Positions 3 to 11,090 of a stretch of 17,086 bases of DNA are shown piece by piece. The notes beneath the pieces are model-generated. The model was given only the letters and a program-made list of their open reading frames with translations. It did not search any database and was not told the DNA's origin. The stretch's first letter is position 1. Each line of letters begins with the position of its first letter. The translations under genes were made by a program, and so were the position numbers. The DNA comes from Promethearchaeota archaeon (lineage in GTDB: Archaea > Asgardarchaeota > Lokiarchaeia > Sigyniarchaeales > SOKP01), in NCBI GenBank assembly GCA_016930515.1, contig JAFGGO010000135.1:1-17086 (forward strand), read 5' to 3'.

Positions 3-2879
3 AAAAGTGAGATCGACGTGGAGGTATTTTTACGTAGGGCAGAACGGCCTTTTAAAGAAAAGATTGGCGAAGATAAAGCAGAAAACATGCTGGAAAAGAT
101 TAAAAAAGCAGCTAATGAAATTCCCGCAAAATTTAGGAGGACAATAGGATCTGAAATACCAAAATATGTTTTTAATTTCTCGCAAGAAATTGAGGATATT
201 TCTCCTGAAACTGTTGAGGGCGTGCTTTTACATGTACTCTTGTTCGCAGAATCCTTGAAAGACCTCGTTAATAAAACTGGAAACGAAGTAAATAAAATGC
301 TTATCGACAGGAGCGGCAATCAAATGCGGAACCTTTCTGACCTGCTCGATGCTTTCGTAAACAAGGCAAAAATAGGCTCCGTCCTCGAAAACGCCAATAA
401 TTTTGATGGTATTCTCTCGTTTATGCTAGGTGGGAAAGTTGAGGCGAAACAATTTAGCGATGTCGATCTGTTTGTAAATCGTGCTGAGAAAAATTTCTCA
501 CAAAGACTAAGCGAAGAAAAATTAAAAGGATTCAACCAGCAATTTAATGATGTTTTACAAAAAGTTGATGGAGAAATTCAGGAATATATGAGATCGGAAC
601 TACCTAAATATTTTTTCAAGTTATCTCAGAACCTTGATGCTTTTTCAAAGGAAGTATTACAAAATATTTTAGATCACACGATATCTTTTCTCATAGCTTT
701 AGCAGATATTAGCGGAAAGACGATGGATCAAGTCAACCAAGAACTCCTGCGGAGAAGCAAGGGAGATACTAGGACCATATTGGACCTATATATTAAACTG
801 ATCCAATCTGTTTCTCAAGGCACTTGCCTTGAATCGAACGAATGCCTGGAAAACGTGATCTCTCACTTGTTTGGTAAAGAAGAAGTCCGCCAGCAGTTCT
901 CAGATATTGAAGCTTTCTTAAAACGGAGCGAGAAAAAATATGCAACGATTATCGGCGAGGATATGATTCAAATGCTCATTGAAGAATTTTTAGATGCCAT
1001 TGAAACCATCCCAGAAATTCACAGAGAATATTTAGGTTCTGATCTAGCAAAATATATTTTTAAACGCTCAGAAACCGCCTCTTATCACGAACCGGAAAAA
1101 GTCGAACTTATGTTTAACACGGCAATTATGTTTGCAAATTCTCTAAGCGAAATCGAAGATTTAAACAAGGCTGAAATAAACCAGTTCCTCATAAATAGGT
1201 CTGAACGGAAAGTGAGGAGCTTGTTTGACTTGTACATTGCCTTTTTAGAAAAAAATGCAGTGAGATCACCACTTGCCTTGGATCCTACATTTGACGAGGT
1301 TTTAAATCACACGCTAGGAAGGTATAGCGGACCGAAGATGATAGAAGACGCGGGATTAATTCACGAGATCGTGAACGATTTACATGAGGAAATACCATTA
1401 ACAAAAGAGCATTCTTCATGGGCAACGAGTATCATGAGCATTATTCCTCGATATTTGGAAATACTTCCGAACGGTAAAGGAGACCGTATAATGGATCTAC
1501 TCTGGGAAAATAAACTGTCAGAAGAGCAGATCGAAGAAGATTTTAGAACAAAAGTTGCAGAAATTCCACGAGAGCATGAAAAACCATTTCTATTCAAATT
1601 ACTTCACTTGTTAACTCATAAAATATTAATGAATGAAGAAGACGACAAGGCCTTAACTGCTGCTGTTGCTTTTCGCATATTAGGTTCGATATTTATTGAC
1701 ATGTTTAGCGGGAGGAATGCCCAAATTCGAGGGATCCGGCTCAATTCGCTTATTAAAGAACGGAAAATCGCAAACCCCGAACACAAGAATGAAATCGATG
1801 TAAATATAAAAAGGATATTAGACGAGGATCTCAAATCGTTGATGCAAAAAACAATGACTATCAACACCATTATCCCCATCATCAACAAGAAGGGTTATTT
1901 TATCAAAATTTACGATATTGTAACAAAAGATATGCCACAACCCGTTCTCAAACTCATTACTGAACGAGAGGCGGATCGTATTAAGGATATTGGCCAGGAA
2001 TACAAGAAAGAAAGCGTTTCGGGTGAACTCATACCCTTAGTAAATAACATTTTAATTCAATTGGAACTGGCACGCGGTTTTTATAAAAAATACTTTGAAG
2101 AAATGTACACTATATCGATGGACGCTCAAAAAAACATGTTGTCCTTAAGAAAATTCTTCAAGATGCTTGTGGAAATAAGCGATAATACGGAGACTATCTC
2201 TTTTTACGATTTTTCCATAGCAAATACGGAACACATCCTTTACATGGATGTTTTGAAATACCTTTACGAACTTCTCCCTGAAATCCTTAGCACGACACGA
2301 ATGATACTTACAGAACAGGAATATCAAACAAAGATAATGAAGCTCGATAAATATCTCAGCAACGAAAAGTTAGAAGAACTTCATCAAGAAATAAAACACA
2401 CCCAAGATAAAATTAATGAATATGAACAAATGGAGGAATTCGATACAACTCAAAAAATTCTCAATTTAAACAAGGCACTACAAAGAGATACAAACGAAAT
2501 CAAGTACTACGATATAATGTTTAAAGTATTGAACGAGGCTGAAAAAATACATGATGTGGTGCAATCAAGACTTGATTTTGCCAAAAAAATATTAACCTAT
2601 TCAAACTCCCTAAAAAAAGTGCATCCAAACTTACCTGCTGCCATACCCGATTATTTAGCACGATTTGCCGAATTTGGACAGGAAATAGATAAGATCGTTG
2701 ACGAACTAAAAAAGAAAAGTGAAACTGGAATCATATCCCCATTTGATCTTAAAGAACGAAACGATGCTGCTGTTGATTCTAAAAAGGAATTAAATGACCT
2801 AATTTCAAATGAGCAATTTATGGAACATTTGAATAAGATGTTAGATAATTCTAAAAAAGAATTTTTTGATTATTATTAG
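3..2879 (+). CDS. Large alpha-helical hypothetical protein with at least three N-terminal 148-aa tandem repeats and a C-terminal coiled-coil-like region; probably 5'-truncated by the window
   Basis: 953-aa ORF from GTG 18. The frame stays open to the window edge (KSEID before V18). Repeat units start at nt 18, 462 and 906. No catalytic motif recognised. Confidence 0.85.
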   Translation, partial: KSEIDVEVFLRRAERPFKEKIGEDKAENMLEKIKKAANEIPAKFRRTIGSEIPKYVFNFSQEIEDISPETVEGVLLHVLLFAESLKDLVNKTGNEVNKMLIDRSGNQMRNLSDLLDAFVNKAKIGSVLENANNFDGILSFMLGGKVEAKQFSDVDLFVNRAEKNFSQRLSEEKLKGFNQQFNDVLQKVDGEIQEYMRSELPKYFFKLSQNLDAFSKEVLQNILDHTISFLIALADISGKTMDQVNQELLRRSKGDTRTILDLYIKLIQSVSQGTCLESNECLENVISHLFGKEEVRQQFSDIEAFLKRSEKKYATIIGEDMIQMLIEEFLDAIETIPEIHREYLGSDLAKYIFKRSETASYHEPEKVELMFNTAIMFANSLSEIEDLNKAEINQFLINRSERKVRSLFDLYIAFLEKNAVRSPLALDPTFDEVLNHTLGRYSGPKMIEDAGLIHEIVNDLHEEIPLTKEHSSWATSIMSIIPRYLEILPNGKGDRIMDLLWENKLSEEQIEEDFRTKVAEIPREHEKPFLFKLLHLLTHKILMNEEDDKALTAAVAFRILGSIFIDMFSGRNAQIRGIRLNSLIKERKIANPEHKNEIDVNIKRILDEDLKSLMQKTMTINTIIPIINKKGYFIKIYDIVTKDMPQPVLKLITEREADRIKDIGQEYKKESVSGELIPLVNNILIQLELARGFYKKYFEEMYTISMDAQKNMLSLRKFFKMLVEISDNTETISFYDFSIANTEHILYMDVLKYLYELLPEILSTTRMILTEQEYQTKIMKLDKYLSNEKLEELHQEIKHTQDKINEYEQMEEFDTTQKILNLNKALQRDTNEIKYYDIMFKVLNEAEKIHDVVQSRLDFAKKILTYSNSLKKVHPNLPAAIPDYLARFAEFGQEIDKIVDELKKKSETGIISPFDLKERNDAAVDSKKELNDLISNEQFMEHLNKMLDNSKKEFFDYY
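18..1349 (+). repeat. Three diverged 444-nt (148-aa) protein-level tandem repeats
   Basis: Ungapped alignment of VEVFLRRAE/VDLFVNRAE/IEAFLKRSE, SEIPKYVF/SELPKYFF/SDLAKYIF and RSGNQMRNLSDL/RSKGDTRTILDL/RSERKVRSLFDL at an exact 148-aa period. Confidence 0.9.
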
Positions 2880-3355
2880 TGACAGCAACATTCTTCGTAA
2901 ATAATGTTCAGAGGAATGAGGTACTCATCTGCCACATCGGTTATGATTTCCATGTTTACTTTTACAACGTCTTTATTGTTTCTGATATGATAATTAATTA
3001 TTTTATCCAAATCTTCTATTTGAAAGCTAGCAACCAATACAATCAAGTTGAAATCTCCACTCGTTCTAAAGGCATTGATTAAGAAAGGACAAGATTTCAC
3101 GATGTTCATAATGGTTTCAGGCTTGTTAGTTAAAATGTCGACCTTTGCAAAATATAAATCTATTTTTTGCATGCTAATTCCTGCTTGAAATTGCAACACT
3201 CCTGAATCCTCTAATTTTCGAATTCGCATTCCAACTGTTGGTTGAGAGCGGCTTACATGCGTGGCTATTTCCGTGTGAGTTAAATTGGGTTCTTGTTGAA
3301 TTAAGCGCACTATTTTTTGGTCAATTTCATCTATCCTAAAACTTTGACTAATCAT
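2876..3355 (-). CDS. Lrp/AsnC family transcriptional regulator with C-terminal CCCH
   Basis: IDEIDQKIVRLIQ...THTEIA...SQPTVGMRIRKLEDSGVL HTH, followed by a RAM-like domain (AFRTSGDFNL). Its stop overlaps the stop of the convergent upstream ORF by 4 bp. Confidence 0.92.
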   Translation of the reverse strand: MISQSFRIDEIDQKIVRLIQQEPNLTHTEIATHVSRSQPTVGMRIRKLEDSGVLQFQAGISMQKIDLYFAKVDILTNKPETIMNIVKSCPFLINAFRTSGDFNLIVLVASFQIEDLDKIINYHIRNNKDVVKVNMEIITDVADEYLIPLNIIYEECCCH

Positions 3356-3705: not shown

Positions 3706-4056
3706 ATGAGCATTTTAACAAAAAATACAGCAGATTTTCTTAAAGTCTTAGGAGATCAAACGCGCCTTGAAATTTTAGAACTCTTGAAAAAAGGGTCAAT
3801 GTCTTCAAGGGATATTGAAGTCGAACTTGATAAAAAACAACCAACCATATCACAGCAACTTAAAATCCTCTATAAATCAGACCTTATCAGCTACGAATTA
3901 AGACAAAATTCAAATGGAAATAATACAAAATATTACACATTCAAGGATAAGGAAATATTTAATCTATTATCGAGCGTGAACTCTTTTATTTTAAAAAAAA
4001 ACAACGAAAAGGTAAAAAATTTAGCTGATCTTGATGTGCTTGATACTTTATCTTGA
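3706..4056 (+). CDS. ArsR/SmtB family winged-HTH regulator, lacking Cys and His
   Basis: FLKVLGDQTRLEILELL...QPTISQQLKILYKSDLI...KYY is the ArsR signature. Confidence 0.9.
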   Translation: MSILTKNTADFLKVLGDQTRLEILELLKKGSMSSRDIEVELDKKQPTISQQLKILYKSDLISYELRQNSNGNNTKYYTFKDKEIFNLLSSVNSFILKKNNEKVKNLADLDVLDTLS

Positions 4057-4106: not shown

Positions 4107-4649
4107 TTGGAAAAGCAAGAGAAACAAGATAAAAAAAAAATAATCTTAGTCGGCATAGATAAGGCGGGAAAAACATCAATTGTTCAGAGTCTTCAAGGAA
4201 TCCGTAATTTAACAGCCTTTAATTCCCTTGTCCCTACGCGAGAATTCAATAGCATTAAGTTCCAAGCAATGGGATTAAATTATTTAATATTAGATCTTGG
4301 AGGTCAAGAATCTTATCGGTTTCGTCATTTAGAAAAATTCGAAGAGCACATACTAGAAGCTAGCAAGATTATTTATGTGATTGATATCCTGGATCGCAAT
4401 CGATACAATTTAAGCTTGGAATATTTGGAGAAGATAATAGATAAATTAAAAAATATACCAATAAATGTTGAGATTTCAATATTTTTTCACAAATACGACC
4501 CCGATTTAGAACCTAAAATCGAAGAATTAGCCCAAAAATCCATGAAGGAGCTCATTGAAAGAATAAAAGTTATAATACCTAACAATTTTAATTATTCAAT
4601 TTTTAAGACTTCAATTTATACCATTTTTGAAAAGTCTAAAATAGATTGA
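4107..4649 (+). CDS. Ras-superfamily small GTPase, Arf/Rag(Gtr)-like
   Basis: G1 GIDKAGKT, G2 PT, G3 DLGGQ, IIYVID strand, G4 HKYD, G5 TSIY. TTG start is uncertain. Confidence 0.92.
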   Translation: MEKQEKQDKKKIILVGIDKAGKTSIVQSLQGIRNLTAFNSLVPTREFNSIKFQAMGLNYLILDLGGQESYRFRHLEKFEEHILEASKIIYVIDILDRNRYNLSLEYLEKIIDKLKNIPINVEISIFFHKYDPDLEPKIEELAQKSMKELIERIKVIIPNNFNYSIFKTSIYTIFEKSKID

Positions 4650-4722
4650 TACGATTTATTATTATAAACGACTTTATTTTTATAGGTGTTATATTCTGTC
4701 CTCACCCAAGCAGGATCGATTT

Positions 4723-7308
4723 ATGAAAGGAATAGAAGAAATAGGCAAAGAATACCTCATTATAATATTTATTCTTTTTATCACATTTCTAACGCAATAT
4801 TACAATTTTTTGCTATTTCACTCTATTGCTGAACTATTTAGCATCATAATCGCAGGTGGAATATTCGTAATAGGATGGAATTCCAAAAAATACATGGATA
4901 GTTCCTTTTTCTTAATCATAGGAGTTTCTTTTCTATTTATCGGAATTTTAGACCTCTTACATACTTTATCGTACAAGGGAATGGGTATATTTATAGAATA
5001 CGGATCCAATTTGCCCACACAATTATGGATTTCAGCTCGATATCTCGAAATATTATCGTTTCTACTCGCAATTTGGCGAATAAACAAAAAAGTACACTCT
5101 TCTTATTTAATCAGTGGATATATGATCATTACAAGCATATTAATCGTATTAATTTTCACAGGAATTTTTCCAACATGTTATATTGAAGGAATTGGCTTGA
5201 CGATGTTTAAGATAACTAGCGAATATATCATAGTTTCGCTCCTGATTCTCTCATTCTTTTTTATAGTCAAGCTTCGAAAGGAATTTAGTAAAAACATTTA
5301 CCGCTGCTTATTAATTTTCATTATCTCAACTATTATCTCTGAAATGGCTTTCACATTTTATATAGGAGTCTATGATTTCTCAAATTTATTAGGCCATATT
5401 TTCAAGATCGGAGCCTTTTATTTCCTCTACAAGGCAATTATCCAAAAGGGTATAGAAAATCCGTTCATATTACTTCACGATAAACTCAGTAATTCAGAAA
5501 AAAAATTTCGCTTCGCTTTTGATAACGCCGCAGATGCCATTCTATGGATTAACGAAAAGGAGAGAAATATAATTAATTGTAATAAAGCGGCTGAACACTT
5601 GTTAGGTAAAAAAAGGGATCAAATTATCGGAACGCCATTATCGGAAATACACGATCATCCGGATCAAGAAAATTTATCTCAATCAATAACCGATTTCTTA
5701 GAACGAGTCGGGAACATAAATATGGATGGTATTGTTGTTTCTAATTCTGGAGAAGTGATACCTGTAAACATTAACGCTTCTCATGTGATTGTTGATAATC
5801 AGAGAGTCATTCAAGAGCTCATTAGAGACATCTCTGTAAGAAAAAAGATTGAAGAATTGAACTACAAGCTTGCATCAATTGTAGATACAACTGACGATGC
5901 AATTATTGGAAAGGAATTAAATGGAACTATAACAAGCTGGAATAAAGGAGCAGAGAGATTATATGGCTATCAAGAAGAAGAAATCCTAGGAAAAAATATT
6001 AGGGTAACATTTCTTCCAGATAAAGAAAATGAATTAGACTACATTATGGATATCATAAAAAAAGACGCTTCGATCGCGCGCTACGAGGCAATGCGTCTAA
6101 GAAAAGATGGCAGCGAGATTGTAGTATCTTTAACAATTTCTCCTATAAAAGATGAAAAAGGAACCATCATTGGAGCGTCTACGATTAGCCGGAACATAAC
6201 GGAAAAGAAAAAGATGGAAGAACAATTAGCGGCTTCAGAAGAAAAATATCGGAACTTGTTTAGCACAGCTCCTTTTGGAATCGTACTTTTTACTCTGGAT
6301 GGAACAATTATTGATACCAACCTCGCAATATCAGATATTATAGGTTATTCAAGCGAAGAATTGATTGGAAAAAATTTTCGAAATGTGATAGTTCCCTCCG
6401 AAAGCCAATTTCTCGATTATTCGAGAAGAGAAGAACTTGCACGCCAGAATATCATTCCCGAACCGAGAGAAATTATCTTGAATAAAAAAGACGGAAGTGA
6501 TATCTGGATATCGTCTAAATTATCTTTCGTTGAGATCGGAGGTAAAAAATTCATACAAGCCCTTATTAACGATGTAACTCGTAGGAAACAAGCAGAAAAA
6601 AGATTAGAACAATTTGTTTCTACTGTATCTCACGAGTTGCGAACTCCAATCACAGTATTATCAATGTCAACTGATTATTTAATCAATTCAAAGGGTGAGA
6701 TATCTGATGAAATAAAAAATAATTTATTAAATGCAATATCACGTAATACATCGTTATTGGCAGAATTAATTGAAGATCTTTTAATTATCTCAAAAATGGA
6801 CGAAAAAAAACTTCGTTTAACTAAGAAAGAATATAATCCAAAAAAAATTGTTGATGACATCATAAAAACAATGGTTCCTGTATCAGAAGAGAAAAATCTA
6901 AAATTTTTGGTTGATATTGACGAAGATCTGAACCTTATTGGTGATTATAAGAGAATAGAACAGGTTTTTCGAATTTTGATCGACAACGCAATAAAATATT
7001 CTGAAAAAAATCCTCAAATCCATATTAAAGCAATCTCTAATTATGAAGGAAAACTCAATCCCAAAAAAATCCCTGGAGTTTTATTTCAAATCTCGGATAA
7101 TGGAATGGGGATGCGAGAAAAAGATCTCAATCATTTATTTGAGCGTTTTTATCGTTCTGATGATGTCGCTGATATCCCTGGAACGGGTTTAGGATTAAGC
7201 ATAGCAAAAGATCTTATTGAATTACACGATGGAAAGATCCATGTCGAAAGCCAATTTGGTAAAGGAACAAATATTTCTATCTTTTTTCCTTTTTTAGAAA
7301 ATATTTAA
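4723..7308 (+). CDS. Membrane sensor histidine kinase: MASE3 + 3 PAS + HisKA + HATPase
   Basis: MASE3-type motifs (FHSIAELFSIIIA, DLLHTLSYKGM, NLPTQLWISARY). PAS motifs NKAAE, WNKGAERLYGY and IGYSSEELIG. H-box SHELRTP (H637), N-box LIDNAIKYS, DNGMG, LFERFYR, GTGLGLSI. Confidence 0.95.
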   Translation: MKGIEEIGKEYLIIIFILFITFLTQYYNFLLFHSIAELFSIIIAGGIFVIGWNSKKYMDSSFFLIIGVSFLFIGILDLLHTLSYKGMGIFIEYGSNLPTQLWISARYLEILSFLLAIWRINKKVHSSYLISGYMIITSILIVLIFTGIFPTCYIEGIGLTMFKITSEYIIVSLLILSFFFIVKLRKEFSKNIYRCLLIFIISTIISEMAFTFYIGVYDFSNLLGHIFKIGAFYFLYKAIIQKGIENPFILLHDKLSNSEKKFRFAFDNAADAILWINEKERNIINCNKAAEHLLGKKRDQIIGTPLSEIHDHPDQENLSQSITDFLERVGNINMDGIVVSNSGEVIPVNINASHVIVDNQRVIQELIRDISVRKKIEELNYKLASIVDTTDDAIIGKELNGTITSWNKGAERLYGYQEEEILGKNIRVTFLPDKENELDYIMDIIKKDASIARYEAMRLRKDGSEIVVSLTISPIKDEKGTIIGASTISRNITEKKKMEEQLAASEEKYRNLFSTAPFGIVLFTLDGTIIDTNLAISDIIGYSSEELIGKNFRNVIVPSESQFLDYSRREELARQNIIPEPREIILNKKDGSDIWISSKLSFVEIGGKKFIQALINDVTRRKQAEKRLEQFVSTVSHELRTPITVLSMSTDYLINSKGEISDEIKNNLLNAISRNTSLLAELIEDLLIISKMDEKKLRLTKKEYNPKKIVDDIIKTMVPVSEEKNLKFLVDIDEDLNLIGDYKRIEQVFRILIDNAIKYSEKNPQIHIKAISNYEGKLNPKKIPGVLFQISDNGMGMREKDLNHLFERFYRSDDVADIPGTGLGLSIAKDLIELHDGKIHVESQFGKGTNISIFFPFLENI

Positions 7309-8244
7309 ATGTTGCTGACAAATACCATGCAAGAAGAATTAAAAATAAAAAAAGACCTTATGGGCTTCCGGATATTAGTTGTAGACGATAATAAAGACAT
7401 CTTATTTAATATCCAGCTCATTTTAGAATCTAGGGGGATTAATGTTATTCCCGCTCGAAATGGAAAGGAAGCTTTAGCGATACTTTCAGATTCGGATGAA
7501 GTCCCCGACATGATCATTAGCGATATAATGATGCCACAGATGAATGGCTACGATTTTTTTAAAACTGTTTCAACAAATTCTCGATTAAGTTCCATACCTT
7601 TTATCTTTCTCACGGCGCGATCCTCTCCAGAAGACGTGAGATTAGGTAAATTACTGGGTGTAGACGATTACATAACTAAGCCAATAAACGAAAAAGACTT
7701 GGTTGCCATCGTTCAAGGTAAAATCTCTCGATTTAATAAAATTAAAAACTACAACAATATACTTCTTGAAGCGTTTAGAGAAATTAATTTAAGTCTCGAT
7801 CCTTCCGTTTCGAAGGAAGAAGTGGATTTAATCCTGTTGTTACTGATGTATTGGGACGATGCATATGGTCCGGAATTATTAAAATATCATCCAAGCGAGA
7901 AAAAAATCCCTTATTCCATAGAAAATATCGGTTTTCAATTATTTAACGCTGCAAGCCTCATTTATGGTCAAGGACGAATGCTTAAAGCGGAAGGGATATT
8001 GTTAAACATCGATAATATAAAAATGAGTGCATATGTATATTTTAATGCTCAAGAGGATAACTCTACTAGATCGGGACAGAGATTGTACATGCTTTCTGTT
8101 ATTGCACCTAAAATCAACTATTTTGAATCTTTACAGATCAAGGAGGTCCTTGCAAGAATATTTTCAAATGTGAAAGAAAATGTAGAATGGAATGTAGAGC
8201 ATTACTATAGTGATGTTATAAAAATACTTTCTTCAAATATATAA
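7309..8244 (+). CDS. Response regulator: REC domain fused to a C-terminal longin/uDENN-like domain
   Basis: REC motifs ILVVDDN, DMIISDIMMPQMNG (D72), FLTA and DDYITKP. The C-terminal domain has YWDDAYGPELL..HP and EDNSTRSGQRLYMLSVI. The ATG directly follows the kinase stop; the true start could be 7327 or 7360. REC call is secure, longin call is by-eye inference. Confidence 0.88.
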   Translation: MLLTNTMQEELKIKKDLMGFRILVVDDNKDILFNIQLILESRGINVIPARNGKEALAILSDSDEVPDMIISDIMMPQMNGYDFFKTVSTNSRLSSIPFIFLTARSSPEDVRLGKLLGVDDYITKPINEKDLVAIVQGKISRFNKIKNYNNILLEAFREINLSLDPSVSKEEVDLILLLLMYWDDAYGPELLKYHPSEKKIPYSIENIGFQLFNAASLIYGQGRMLKAEGILLNIDNIKMSAYVYFNAQEDNSTRSGQRLYMLSVIAPKINYFESLQIKEVLARIFSNVKENVEWNVEHYYSDVIKILSSNI

Positions 8245-8404: not shown

Positions 8405-8977
8405 ATGGACATGAAAAAAAAAAGTTTCAACGAATTGCTGGGTATAGACGAGGCCGATAAGAAGATCATTGAAATGATCGAAGAGAATCCCGATATCACG
8501 CACTCTAGAATAGCGGAAGAAATAGACAAATCTCAACCCGCCGTGGGTGCGCGGATTATTAAGCTTGAGAGAAAAAACCTTTTGACAAAACAAGTGGGAT
8601 TTAACATAAAAGAAGTGGATATAAAAGTAGCTATTGTATATATATCGACTAAAGATGTTGATGGTATCGTGGAAAAAATCATATCTTGTCCATTTATTAA
8701 CCACGCGTTTAAAATCTCAGGTGAATTCAATTTATTATGCTTCATCGCTGCATCGGATCTACAAACAATCGAGAAACTCGTAGATCTCTGTTTCAGGAAG
8801 GATCCAGAAGTTATAAATGTAAAAACAAACATATTAATCGAATCGATTCACGATTTCGTCGTTCCTATTGATTTTACAATAGAAAAATTTGATGGAAAGT
8901 TCTGTGGACCTGGATGCAACATGAGGCAAGAATCGCCTAAATTCAAGTTTGACAAGCCAAAACAAGTGGAAGAATAA
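8405..8977 (+). CDS. Lrp/AsnC family regulator with C-terminal CxxxC
   Basis: IDEADKKIIEMI...THSRIA...SQPAVGARIIKLE HTH, AFKISGEFNL, tail FCGPGC. Confidence 0.92.
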   Translation: MDMKKKSFNELLGIDEADKKIIEMIEENPDITHSRIAEEIDKSQPAVGARIIKLERKNLLTKQVGFNIKEVDIKVAIVYISTKDVDGIVEKIISCPFINHAFKISGEFNLLCFIAASDLQTIEKLVDLCFRKDPEVINVKTNILIESIHDFVVPIDFTIEKFDGKFCGPGCNMRQESPKFKFDKPKQVEE

Positions 8978-9102: not shown

Positions 9103-9651
9103 TCAATAAAATTGTGCGAGTCCTGCCTCGTTCGCTTTTTTATACTTGCACAATTCTCCACATCCGTGTTCTTCGTTTGGATTGTGATTTTCCGAGTCGA
9201 AATCTATTGGGAGGATCAAGTCTTTGGCAATGTCGGTGACGAGCTCCATTGAGACATTTTGAACCTCTGGTCTGTTTCTAAAGTGGTAATTTATGATCGC
9301 GTCGATTTTTTCCAGCTTTGAACTAGTTAACATTATGCACACATTGTGATCACCACTCACTCTAAAAGCGTTAAGCATGAACGGGCAAAATTTTGCCATT
9401 TCCATGAGCCGTTCGGGCTCTTTCGTGTTAACTTCCACGGTCGCCAAAAAAAGGTCTACCTTTTTGAAGTTAATACCAGGTTGGAATTGCAAAATACCCG
9501 ATTGTTCGAGCTTTTTTATTCTCATGCCAATAGTTGGTTGAGATCGATTGACTCGTTCTGCAATTTCCGTATGTGTCATGTTTGGTTCTTCTTGAACTAT
9601 CGAAATGATTTGCTTATCTATGTCATCGAGTTTTAATTTATCGCTTATCAT
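9103..9651 (-). CDS. Lrp/AsnC family regulator with C-terminal HxCxxxC
   Basis: LDDIDKQII...THTEIA...SQPTIGMRIKKLEQSGIL HTH, AFRVSGDHN, tail HGCGELC. Confidence 0.92.
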   Translation of the reverse strand: MISDKLKLDDIDKQIISIVQEEPNMTHTEIAERVNRSQPTIGMRIKKLEQSGILQFQPGINFKKVDLFLATVEVNTKEPERLMEMAKFCPFMLNAFRVSGDHNVCIMLTSSKLEKIDAIINYHFRNRPEVQNVSMELVTDIAKDLILPIDFDSENHNPNEEHGCGELCKYKKANEAGLAQFY

Positions 9652-9784: not shown

Positions 9785-10309
9785 TTATGTGTTAGAAAAA
9801 TTCTTACAATAAGAACAATCTCCAGCACCAGGATCCAAATGTTCTTGGAGGTCTAGATTAACTGGAACTACGAAATCTCGTGCAATTTCCACAACAACTT
9901 CCATTTTCACTTCTTGAATCTCGCCCTTGTTCCTAAAATGAGAATTAACTAAACCATATAGTTTTTCAAGGTCACTACTCACGAGAAATAAAAGCATGTT
10001 AAAATCCCCTGTGATTTGAAAACAATTCGCAATGAATGGGCAATGAGCGGCCATTTCATTGATTTCGGAAGGATTATTGGTTTTTAGACGAACTAAAGAT
10101 AAGTAGAGATCGATAAACTTCAAGTTTAGTCCAGCATTTATCGCTAAAACTCCCGATTTTTTCAATTTTTTTAACCTAGCACCAACTGTAGGTTGACTTC
10201 TTTCAATCATCTCAGCTATTTGAGAATGAGTAATATTCGGATCCTTTTGGAGCAAGTCAATAATTTGCTTGTCAATATCGTCTAAAGGGATTTTACTTGG
10301 AAGATCCAT
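9785..10309 (-). CDS. Lrp/AsnC family regulator with C-terminal CxxC
   Basis: LDDIDKQIIDLLQKD...THSQIA...SQPTVGARLKKLKKSGVL HTH, FQITGDFNM, tail DCSYC. Confidence 0.92.
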   Translation of the reverse strand: MDLPSKIPLDDIDKQIIDLLQKDPNITHSQIAEMIERSQPTVGARLKKLKKSGVLAINAGLNLKFIDLYLSLVRLKTNNPSEINEMAAHCPFIANCFQITGDFNMLLFLVSSDLEKLYGLVNSHFRNKGEIQEVKMEVVVEIARDFVVPVNLDLQEHLDPGAGDCSYCKNFSNT

Positions 10310-10391: not shown

Positions 10392-11090
10392 TTAATTAAC
10401 AACGATTCCTTCCATTACGAGACCAATGGAATATGAAATGATGAATGCTATCGTGCCAACTAAGACCATTTCAATAGCTCCTTTTAGCGGTTTTTCACCC
10501 GTTATCTTACTTTTTAACGCACCGACTAAAAATAACATGATAAAAGAAACGATAGACGAAAAAATTAAGGATGAAACTCCCAGATTGAGAAAGTAGGGAA
10601 AAAGTGGCACGAAAGCACCAATTACAAAAGCTAAAAACGTCAGTAAAGCTCCAAGAGCTGGATGTTCGGGTTCATCTAATCCCAATTCGCTTTTAGTCAA
10701 GAAATCTAACCACACTTGCTTGTTAGAAGTTATAGTTTCAACGCAAGAATCTAAATTTTTACCTTGAAAGCCCATTTTAGAAAATATATCCCTAACCTCT
10801 TCTTTTTCCTCGTCAGGAAAGAGTTCAATTTCGGCCTTTTCCTTTTTGATTTCATTTCGGGTGAAATTATATTCAGATTTCGAAGAAATATATTCTCCAA
10901 GTCCCATGCTGCAGGCCCCCGAGACCATCGCTGCAAAACCAGTAAGAATGACGATGGAATTTCCCCCCGCAATGGTTGCTGCAGCAACACCTATAAGTAG
11001 TGTGAAAGTTGAGATCAAACCGTCATTTAAGCCTAATATAATCGACCTTATCTTAGTTCCTCCAGTTTTGTGAGGTTCACTTGATTGCAT
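10392..11090 (-). CDS. VIT1/CCC1 family Fe2+/Mn2+ transporter
   Basis: IILGLNDGL, AMVSGACSMGLGEYIS, a Glu-rich cytoplasmic loop (EIKKEKAEIELFPDEEKEE) and FVIGAFVPLFPYF. Confidence 0.95.
   Translation of the reverse strand: MQSSEPHKTGGTKIRSIILGLNDGLISTFTLLIGVAAATIAGGNSIVILTGFAAMVSGACSMGLGEYISSKSEYNFTRNEIKKEKAEIELFPDEEKEEVRDIFSKMGFQGKNLDSCVETITSNKQVWLDFLTKSELGLDEPEHPALGALLTFLAFVIGAFVPLFPYFLNLGVSSLIFSSIVSFIMLFLVGALKSKITGEKPLKGAIEMVLVGTIAFIISYSIGLVMEGIVVN

Follow-up and report, generated by a model that had tools for sequence, protein, structure and literature searches.

A Lokiarchaeia gene cassette linking a histidine kinase and a response regulator with a predicted GAP-type longin output domain to a Rag/Arf-like small GTPase

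The window analyzed here is a stretch of 17,086 nucleotides from a Loki-type Asgard archaeon. Its central genes are best explained as a four-gene Lokiarchaeia signaling cassette that encodes an ArsR protein, a small GTPase, a MASE3/PAS histidine kinase, and a REC-longin response regulator (Table 1). The ORF coordinates confirm the three co-oriented genes of the initial annotation, with gaps of 73 nt between GTPase and kinase and 0 nt between kinase and regulator. The limits of 4107–8244 proposed at that stage enclose three real genes and leave out the conserved fourth, ArsR, which is the first gene of the cassette (cluster 5) and at 55 class A loci directly precedes the GTPase. Most class A loci also have an Lrp/AsnC-type gene (cluster 1) upstream of ArsR, in divergent orientation.

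Table 1. Genes, domains, and key residues of the cassette and its conserved neighbor, in window positions
Feature	Position	Strand	Basis or remark
Lrp/AsnC-type regulator	2876..3355	-	Pfam HTH_24/AsnC_trans_reg; divergent from cassette, conserved neighbor
ArsR-type winged-helix protein, 116 aa, without Cys	3706..4056	+	Pfam HTH_5 9.8e-14
Small GTPase, G domain only, 180 aa	4107..4649	+	Pfam, motifs
Sensor histidine kinase, MASE3 + three PAS + HisKA + HATPase_c	4723..7308	+	Pfam and NCBIfam
Kinase H-box His, H637	6631..6633	+	
Response regulator, whole ORF	7309..8244	+	
Regulator receiver domain + long alpha5/linker helix	7309..7800	+	Pfam REC 1.2e-25; helix from model
Regulator phospho-acceptor Asp, D72	7522..7524	+	
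GAP-type longin output domain, aa 165-311 (predicted)	7801..8244	+	fold, conservation
WDDxxGP motif, aa 182-188	7852..7872	+	
R254	8068..8070	+	beta4-beta5 loop

The GTPase matches both the Gtr1_RagA (1.2e-18; 67.8 bits, with the cutoff at 22) and Arf (2.1e-18; 66.8 bits) families of Pfam. Its motifs are GIDKAGKT (G1), T44, DLGGQ, HKYD (G4), and TSI (G5); the P-loop is Arf-like, of the GLDxxGKT type, and the last two motifs display the HKxD and TSI pattern of the Rag/Gtr family, with H128, K129, D131, and T168 conserved. Across 59 orthologs there is no variation at G16, G21, K22, T44, D63, G66, K129, D131, or the catalytic glutamine Q67. The protein stops 8 residues past the G5 motif with no roadblock tail, and it is therefore called Rag/Arf-like rather than Rag, as the C-terminal roadblock dimerization domain is absent. 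Arf proteins combine their G domain with an N-terminal amphipathic helix myristoylated at Gly2; here, the N-terminal stretch is charged, made up of Lys and Glu, and has no Gly2, and no lipidation signal was found in the GTPase sequence. Among solved structures, the Lokiarchaeal GTPases 8yl2 (1e-41) and LokiRagM (9m28/8zla; 2e-33) come closest; the latter is titled a Rag-like GTPase.

The kinase carries its MASE3 membrane domain at residues 25–247 (Pfam 1.3e-82) and its HATPase_c domain at residues 740–857, in addition to the three PAS domains and HisKA. The regulator places a receiver domain before a long helix modeled at residues 128–158. Conservation among 102 homologs is high for D27 (95/102), D72 (98/102), T/S102 (101/102), and K124 (98/102). 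The pair thus possesses the receiver aspartate, acidic pocket, Thr/Ser, and lysine of a two-component system together with an adjacent HisKA/HATPase kinase bearing an H-box histidine, in agreement with the intact phosphorelay residues proposed initially.

Residues 150–311 of the regulator have no Pfam match. An AlphaFold2 model of the C-terminal ∼150 residues adopts the longin topology beta-beta-alpha-beta-beta-beta-alpha-alpha (pLDDT 91.8–92.8) and aligns by VIA-align with the Lst4 longin (Z 11.9), the Lokiarchaeal Roadblock-Longin protein (8yqg; 11.7), FLCN (11.3), and C9orf72-SMCR8 (11.2); the best Foldseek matches are FNIP2 (2.9e-5), NPRL2/3, and FLCN. Resemblance extends at Z 7–10 to DENND1, Mon1-Ccz1, TRAPP sedlin/synbindin, and roadblock GAP/GEF platforms. 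The published signature of GAP longins consists of a GP motif in the beta1-beta2 loop, an adjacent arginine finger, and the WD motif of C9orf72; the GP motif and adjacent arginine are reported absent from DENND, TRAPP, and adaptin longins (PMC12290439). In the regulator, W182-D183 and G187-P188 begin strand 2, which starts at residue 187 in the model, and the conserved R254 is predicted to be spatially adjacent. Among the 102 homologs, W182 and G187 are present in all, P188 in 100, R254 in 98, and D183 in 94; R254 is invariant across 59 cassette copies.

A PDB sequence search with the family profile returned nothing up to E 10, the Pfam Folliculin model was touched by just 2 of 87 family members (E 0.087), the FLCN segment containing R164 (FLCN 152–179) fails to align with the longin family profile, and similarity to the Folliculin/NPR2 families is not significant. 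Since similarity to FLCN, NPRL2, and SMCR8 is insignificant, the assignment to this longin class relies on the fold, the motif position, and the model, which support a predicted longin of the FLCN/NPRL2/SMCR8 type whose R254 lies in the loop between strands beta4 and beta5. The initial annotation was correct in naming the output a longin rather than an HTH domain. The D-x-x-x-R-x-x-Q-R-x-Y likeness to FLCN that it noted by eye is a feature of one protein, not of the family, and is statistically unsupported.

The recurrence of the gene order was examined in other genomes, where GTPase, kinase, and regulator occur in order at 63 of 105 REC-longin genes (101 loci), although these loci are the best-scoring profile matches, come mostly from one family, and are not independent counts. 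The ordered cases span six genera of the family to which the window belongs and one genome of another order, with median intergenic gaps of 38 nt (ArsR/GTPase), 73 nt, and 57 nt. A further 16 of the 105 genes directly adjoin a GTPase: at some of these loci ArsR, GTPase, and regulator follow one another and the kinase is missing, and at others the regulator is followed by a GTPase that is a different paralog. By comparison, a GTPase-like ORF occurs within 3.5 kb of only 13% of the ORFs of at least 150 aa in the window's own genome, and of 2 of its 18 REC genes. Linkage between GTPase and regulator exceeds chance, and the refutation by lack of conserved linkage foreseen in the initial annotation fails. 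An adjacent GTPase is missing from approximately one-fifth of the REC-longin genes sampled, among them the second copy in the window's genome (contig C47), and none was found for DUF1638-longin fusions. Co-transcription is not general, as the GTPase of one genus (g10) is encoded on the other strand.

The partner is also specific. For 60 of 62 cassette GTPases, the best match in the window's genome, which harbors ∼82 GTPase-like ORFs, is the window GTPase; the cassette GTPase forms a dedicated ortholog group. Eleven genomes of the family have no such longin domain, and in ten of them the ortholog is missing too: their best GTPase E-values are 1e-36 to 1e-43, whereas the ortholog scores 3e-72 and the best paralog 9e-52. 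The genomes without both include four of one genus that are 90–100% complete. In the window's genome, one protein joins an Arf-like GTPase directly to a longin of the regulator's subfamily (E 2e-12; YWDENKGP, arginine present) and to PAS domains. An atlas cluster of 274 archaeal Arf + longin proteins gives a fold match of TM 0.75.

A physical contact is suggested by a model of two longin domains with the GTPase, GTP, and Mg. The model reached an ipSAE of 0.71 compared with 0.04 for the best of 3 controls; of 80 solved complexes, 58 attain that mark, as do 2 of 110 mismatched pairs, with the qualifications that the alignments and riding ligands depart from the calibration setup of the tool and that the score may reflect memory of the solved FLCN-Rag, GATOR1-Rag, and C9orf72/SMCR8-Arf1 complexes. 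Runs share at least 80% of contacts, and the partner pLDDT is 81–82. The predicted interface joins longin residues 182–189, 209–223, and 254–257 to GTPase residues 18–19, 23, 41–46, and 67–70. R254 contacts residues 19 of the P-loop and 43 of switch I, and W182, D184, and G187 likewise contact residue 43. The model supports a predicted binding mode in which R254 and the WDDxxGP loop sit on the P-loop and switches.

In the proposed mechanism, the kinase would sense a membrane cue or a cytoplasmic cue through its PAS domains, autophosphorylate at H637, and relay the phosphoryl group to the regulator at D72. Phosphorylation would alter the presentation of two longin domains, probably through dimerization of the receiver and linker helix, and the longin dimer would bind the cassette GTPase across the P-loop and both switch regions. 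The most likely consequence would be stimulated GTP hydrolysis, with R254, next to the WD-GP loop, serving as the arginine finger and assisting Q67 of the GTPase. FLCN, NPRL2, and SMCR8 supply such an arginine finger to Rag and Arf GTPases; longin dimers are, however, more often GEFs (TRAPP, Mon1-Ccz1, DENN) than GAPs. We infer the phosphotransfer, the phosphorylation-dependent control, the GAP chemistry, and the events downstream of the GTPase, where the ArsR protein, co-conserved in the cassette, is a candidate output. Overall, there is roughly an even chance that a phosphorylation-controlled longin dimer has the cassette GTPase as its target, with GAP activity as the probable effect.

The leading alternative retains the binding and changes its consequence: the longin dimer may be an exchange factor or a nucleotide-state-specific effector or scaffold, with phosphorylation tuning activation or localization instead of turning the GTPase off. 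Linkage, co-occurrence, and the modeled interface fit this reading equally well, and the fold matches to GEF and GAP/GEF platforms favor it. It is nevertheless rather unlikely, as the GP motif and invariant arginine reported to be specific to GAP longins (PMC12290439) are near-invariant here, R254 is modeled at the usual arginine-finger site, and the GTPase retains its catalytic glutamine.

Other readings loosen the tie between regulator and GTPase. The GTPase might be an input or parallel branch that modulates the kinase or ArsR, much like its counterpart in the actinobacterial conservon, with the longin acting on another partner. ArsR and the GTPase are indeed the tightest pair of the cassette and stay together where the kinase is missing, conservon kinase, roadblock protein, and GTPase interact without a response regulator (PMC4316618), and some REC-longin genes have no GTPase neighbor. 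That arrangement is improbable, given that kinase-less loci (L111, L127, L137) keep the GTPase directly beside the REC-longin gene, a separate REC-longin clade pairs with a separate GTPase paralog, GTPase-longin fusions exist, and the most conserved longin surface is the modeled interface. Adjacency could even reflect inherited gene order, the GTPase being functionally independent of kinase and regulator, since shared ancestry in a sample drawn mostly from one family inflates counts and the GTPase is divergently oriented in genus g10. This is the least credible reading: order is kept though regulators are just 40–50% identical, linkage survives where the kinase has been lost, where the GTPase is inverted, and where another paralog takes part in a second arrangement, both genes are gained and lost together, and fusions join both domain types.

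A broader and more doubtful proposal is that the cassette represents a surviving prokaryote-style version of the Rag/longin-GAP nutrient switch, with a homodimeric, phosphorylation-gated longin GAP of the FLCN/NPRL2 type, a roadblock-less Rag/Arf-like GTPase as its target, and ArsR as transcriptional output. If so, the pairing of longin GAP and GTPase would predate eukaryotes, its first wiring would have been a His-Asp phosphorelay, and lysosomal amino-acid sensing would have replaced it later. More immediately, the GTPase targets of Asgard GP-motif longins have been posed as an open question (PMC12290439), and in the cultured Lokiarchaeon, GTPase and regulator genes as a rule lie outside operons, so that pairs are difficult to predict (Tran et al., PMC10933270). 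The cassette offers one specific candidate pair, complete with a sensor kinase and with ArsR as candidate transcriptional output, and its parts are small soluble domains amenable to in vitro assays. The preferred GAP reading, or its GEF variant, would if true provide the first demonstrated FLCN/GATOR1/C9orf72-type pair of regulator and GTPase outside eukaryotes and show a bacterial-type phosphorelay driving a eukaryote-like GTPase switch.

The closest precedent qualifies the earlier designation of a new system. In its accessible part, the study by Liu et al. (2020; bioRxiv 10.1101/2020.10.19.343400, Fig. 5c) already reports many Asgard fusions of NPRL2-like longins with two-component domains, proposes that two-component systems drive eukaryote-like regulators, and describes most such genes as lacking conserved neighborhoods. 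The proteins are of the same kind, an NPRL2/FLCN-type longin joined to a two-component domain; the accessible text presents domain architectures and mentions neither a cognate GTPase nor a cassette, whereas GTPase, kinase, and ArsR are fixed here. Novelty is accordingly limited, the domain fusion being published and the fixed GTPase partner, it appears, unpublished. The thaumarchaeal REC-NitrOD3 proteins are also archaeal response regulators with a roadblock/longin-superfamily output in place of DNA binding, but belong to another phylum and to another branch of the superfamily (roadblock/LC7-related), and the accessible part of their description mentions neither GP/Arg motifs nor a GTPase partner (PMC5847659).

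In bacteria, the actinobacterial conservon (CvnA kinase, CvnB roadblock, CvnC, CvnD GTPase) and the Myxococcus MglA/MglB-RomR system (PMC4316618) similarly couple His-kinase/response-regulator signaling to a Ras-superfamily GTPase through a co-encoded roadblock/longin-superfamily protein. Both employ MglA-type GTPases and separate roadblock (MglB) proteins rather than a REC-fused FLCN-type longin and a Rag/Arf-like GTPase, and the conservon has no response regulator. The eukaryotic counterparts, FLCN-FNIP (RagC/D), GATOR1 NPRL2-NPRL3 (RagA/B), and C9orf72-SMCR8 (Arf), share the longin fold and, with the Asgard FLCN/SMCR8-type longins (PMC12290439), the GP at strand 2, the WD, and the arginine in a neighboring loop. 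As in those complexes, two longins are modeled around the switches of a Rag/Arf-like GTPase with a catalytic glutamine, although sequence similarity to the eukaryotic longin GAPs is not significant. The eukaryotic GAPs are heterodimers of large DENN-type proteins, in contrast with the proposed homodimer of one small domain, and the cassette GTPase lacks the roadblock domain through which Rag GTPases dimerize. Their input is amino-acid sensing at lysosomes; in the cassette, a receiver domain takes that place.

The core of the cassette consists of three co-oriented open reading frames (ORFs), with gaps of 73 nt between the GTPase and the kinase and 0 nt between the kinase and the response regulator. 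The GTPase carries the P-loop GIDKAGKT, T44, DLGGQ, the G4 motif HKYD and the G5 motif TSI, and has neither a C-terminal roadblock domain nor a lipidation signal. The C-terminal 150 residues of the regulator have no match in Pfam or NCBIfam. The gene coordinates and the residues H637, D72 and R254 agree with those of the initial annotation, whose observation is confirmed overall. Next to none of the window's words are present in two metatranscriptomes from the source study.

Cassette genes in the window, with profile matches (E-values) and key residues
Gene	Positions	Strand	Features
Small GTPase	4107-4649	+	180 aa; Pfam Gtr1_RagA 1.2e-18, Arf 2.1e-18
Histidine kinase	4723-7308	+	MASE3 membrane domain 1.3e-82, three PAS, HisKA, HATPase_c; H-box His = 637
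Response regulator	7309-8244	+	Receiver domain 1.2e-25, D72

Around the cassette, window positions 2876-3355 (-), 8405-8977 (+), 9103-9651 (-), 9785-10309 (-) and 10392-11090 (-) harbor four Lrp/AsnC-type regulators beside a VIT1 iron/manganese transporter; the Lrp/AsnC-type gene upstream of ArsR is conserved along with the cassette in other genomes. A 953-aa ORF (18-2879, +) enters from the contig start and matches nothing in Pfam at E up to 0.001.

Identification of the output domain relies on structure. Among 1.84 billion representative proteins searched, the C-terminal domain has 161 relatives, mostly receiver-plus-domain proteins of ∼295 aa encoded in assemblies of Promethearchaeota and Helarchaeota. 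With these alignments, the AlphaFold2 model reaches a pLDDT of 92.8 for the whole regulator and 91.8 for the domain alone; its predicted topology, beta-beta-alpha-beta-beta-beta-alpha-alpha, is the longin fold, joined to REC alpha5 by a 30-residue helix. Among 48,161 PDB representatives compared by VIA-align, the highest Z scores belong to the longin of Lst4, the yeast FNIP (11.9), the Lokiarchaeal Roadblock-Longin 8yqg (11.7), FLCN (11.3) and C9orf72-SMCR8 (11.2), with sedlin, DENND1, NPRL, VAMP7, Mon1-Ccz1 and roadblock proteins scoring lower. The leading Foldseek matches are FNIP2, NPRL2/3, 8yqg and FLCN, and a shape search of the ESM Atlas retrieves Heimdallarchaeial folliculin-like, SMCR8-like and FLCN/SMCR8-type uDENN clusters as well as an archaeal Arf+longin fusion family. 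These results bear out the longin/uDENN-like output domain of the initial annotation. The fold assignment is structural because sequence methods detect none of the longin likeness: the family profile has zero matches to PDB sequences at E up to 10, and a Pfam scan of 87 family members returns nothing significant, with Folliculin, Afi1 and NPR2 as faint leads only.

GAP-type longins are distinguished by a GP motif, located in the beta1-beta2 loop or where strand 2 begins, an arginine finger close to this motif in space and, in C9orf72, a WD motif; the DENND, TRAPP and adaptin longins lack these features, and the same arrangement is reported in one class of Asgard longins, with GTPase partners unknown (PMC12290439). 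In 102 aligned REC-longin proteins, W182 and G187 are invariant, P188 is conserved in 100, R254 in 98 and D183 in 94, and the receiver residues D27, D72, T/S102 and K124 are likewise conserved. R254 lies in the beta4-beta5 hairpin loop. A gap-free match to an FLCN motif, put forward in the initial annotation, is not a feature of the family, the consensus of which is [FGY]-G-E-K-Q-Y and not S-G-Q-R-L-Y. The FLCN segment (residues 152-172, including R164, verified in PDB chain 6ulg_L) scores -1.2 bits against the family HMM, whereas shuffled copies reach 7.2, and does not align to it. Only loop position and invariance are counted as evidence for R254, and the motif match is excluded.

The gene linkage recurs in other genomes. 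A longin-domain profile detects the domain in 168 of 400 genomes of the phylum, including 123 of the 134 in the family of the window. Stretches of ∼16 kb were fetched around 100 of the best-scoring matches and annotated with purpose-built profiles. The synteny in question, GTPase, kinase, then regulator, is present at 63 of the 105 REC-longin genes in these loci, against a background of 13% of ORFs of at least 150 aa in the window's own genome with a GTPase-like ORF within 3.5 kb, although the linkage counts are not independent because the genomes are related. The remainder comprises 16 genes with a GTPase less than 400 nt away and no intervening kinase, six with a kinase and no GTPase, 15 in other arrangements and five at a contig end. 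Among the 63 is a locus whose kinase is divided between a MASE3 ORF and a PAS-kinase ORF (L085:6332-8938), which could reflect a frameshift, misassembly or a true division of the gene. Of the 18 REC genes in the window's genome, two lie within 3.5 kb of GTPase-like ORFs, namely the window regulator and a stand-alone receiver domain (contig C167:804-1190).

Clustering of neighboring genes defines the conserved unit as a divergent Lrp gene followed by ArsR, GTPase, kinase and REC-longin, with median gaps of 38, 73 and 57 nt from ArsR onward, and gene order is kept even at 40-50% identity between regulators. Genera g6 and g13 harbor an ArsR-GTPase-regulator variant without the kinase, the GTPase is inverted in g10, and g11 and g12 contain a separate regulator clade in the order regulator then GTPase. 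In eight loci of other genomes (L112, L116, L117, L120, L122, L126, L130 and L132, around position 8000), regulators of a second REC-longin clade have a different GTPase paralog directly downstream (10-180 nt) with no kinase between, which is an independent regulator-GTPase pairing. Two kinase-regulator loci without a GTPase carry a conserved 96-aa acidic ORF just 3' of REC-longin (L003:5950-6240 and L005:3584-3874), to which the GTPase and longin profiles give no match. The small ORFs adjoining relatives (96-97, 125, 182, 199 and 401 aa) were considered as GTPases or longins and are neither.

The cassette GTPase appears as a dedicated partner. This genome contains ∼82 GTPase-like ORFs, and when all its ORFs are compared, the window GTPase is the best match of 60 of 62 cassette GTPases; GTPases of the second arrangement match other paralogs. 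Across 59 orthologs, neither the G motifs nor the catalytic Gln vary. Its closest relatives of solved structure are two Lokiarchaeal GTPases, 8yl2 (1e-41) and LokiRagM 9m28/8zla (2e-33, titled Rag-like GTPase), followed by Arl3/Arf6 (1e-21) and RagC/D (1e-17). Of the 11 family genomes without the longin domain, 10 also lack the ortholog: their best E-values are 1e-36 to 1e-43, whereas the ortholog reaches 3e-72 and the best paralog in the window's genome 9e-52. Four genomes of genus g2 (90-100% complete) and one of g12 (95% complete) are among these 10, and the remaining genome is an assembly of 89% completeness.

The same longin subfamily is also found in other architectures. Contig C101 of this genome encodes a multidomain protein (L009:1-2706, -; 902 aa within the retrieved region, open frame of 994 aa). 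Its Arf-like GTPase (aa 147-308) leads directly into a longin (E 2e-12) that keeps YWDENKGP and the Arg of the loop; two PAS domains come next, uniting sensor, GTPase and longin in a single protein. A similar 630-aa protein on C40 (L010:547-2439) joins an Arf-like GTPase to the longin (E 1e-9). Rag-family GTPases fused to longin domains are also mentioned by Liu et al. (bioRxiv 10.1101/2020.10.19.343400). Elsewhere, DUF1638 takes the place of REC as the fusion partner of the longin (L141:5001-6104 and L143:5001-6098; P0027 and P0032), with no GTPase neighbor and a conserved 199-aa Cys-rich ORF upstream.

A complex of two longin-domain copies, the GTPase, GTP and Mg was predicted with alignments from the same 59 loci. 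Its ipSAE is 0.71, compared with 0.04 for the best of three controls; among solved complexes 58 of 80 attain this mark, as do 2 of 110 mismatched pairs. At least 80% of contacts are shared between runs, with partner pLDDT of 81-82. The modeled interface involves longin residues 182-189 (WDDxxGP), 209-223 (helix 1) and 254-257, and GTPase residues 18-19 and 23 (P-loop), 41-46 (switch I) and 67-70 (switch II with Q67). In the model, R254 contacts GTPase residues 19 and 43; the GTPase is also touched by the second longin copy. The interface resembles the two-longin catalytic pocket of eukaryotic GAP complexes, so the prediction may in part echo those complexes; it establishes a likeness and supports longin-GTPase binding but is not proof of it.

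The rearranged variants that keep the GTPase-regulator pair together are a stronger argument for linkage than the counts. It is quite probable that regulator and GTPase are functionally coupled, and mere inherited adjacency of the GTPase and the kinase/regulator pair is very improbable. In the proposed mechanism, the kinase would sense a signal and pass a phosphoryl group from H637 to D72, upon which the longin dimer would be presented differently and act on the cassette GTPase. In the leading version, which has about an even chance of being correct, the dimer would act as a GAP through R254. Binding as modeled would also serve a longin that acts as a GEF or an effector for the GTPase, a rather doubtful alternative. 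A scheme in which the GTPase is an input or a parallel branch is unlikely.

The interpretation of the initial annotation is partly supported: the cassette holds a conserved longin-GTPase pair with a sensory input and is not a "new system". Liu et al. propose that Asgard growth regulation centers on two-component systems with eukaryote-like regulators, and the longin/two-component fusion and the general idea are already published there. The cassette and a cognate GTPase are not mentioned in the searched passages of Liu et al., Tran et al., the Arf preprint or the archaeal two-component census, and full-text literature searches found no paper mentioning either. The value of the cassette is that it offers a concrete, conserved and testable pair with a defined sensory input. 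The co-conserved ArsR protein is a candidate transcriptional output; it has no Cys and is therefore not a metal sensor. Its presence recalls Group 3 MglA neighborhoods, in which a receiver-like/winged-helix protein is found with MglA and MglB (PMC4316618).
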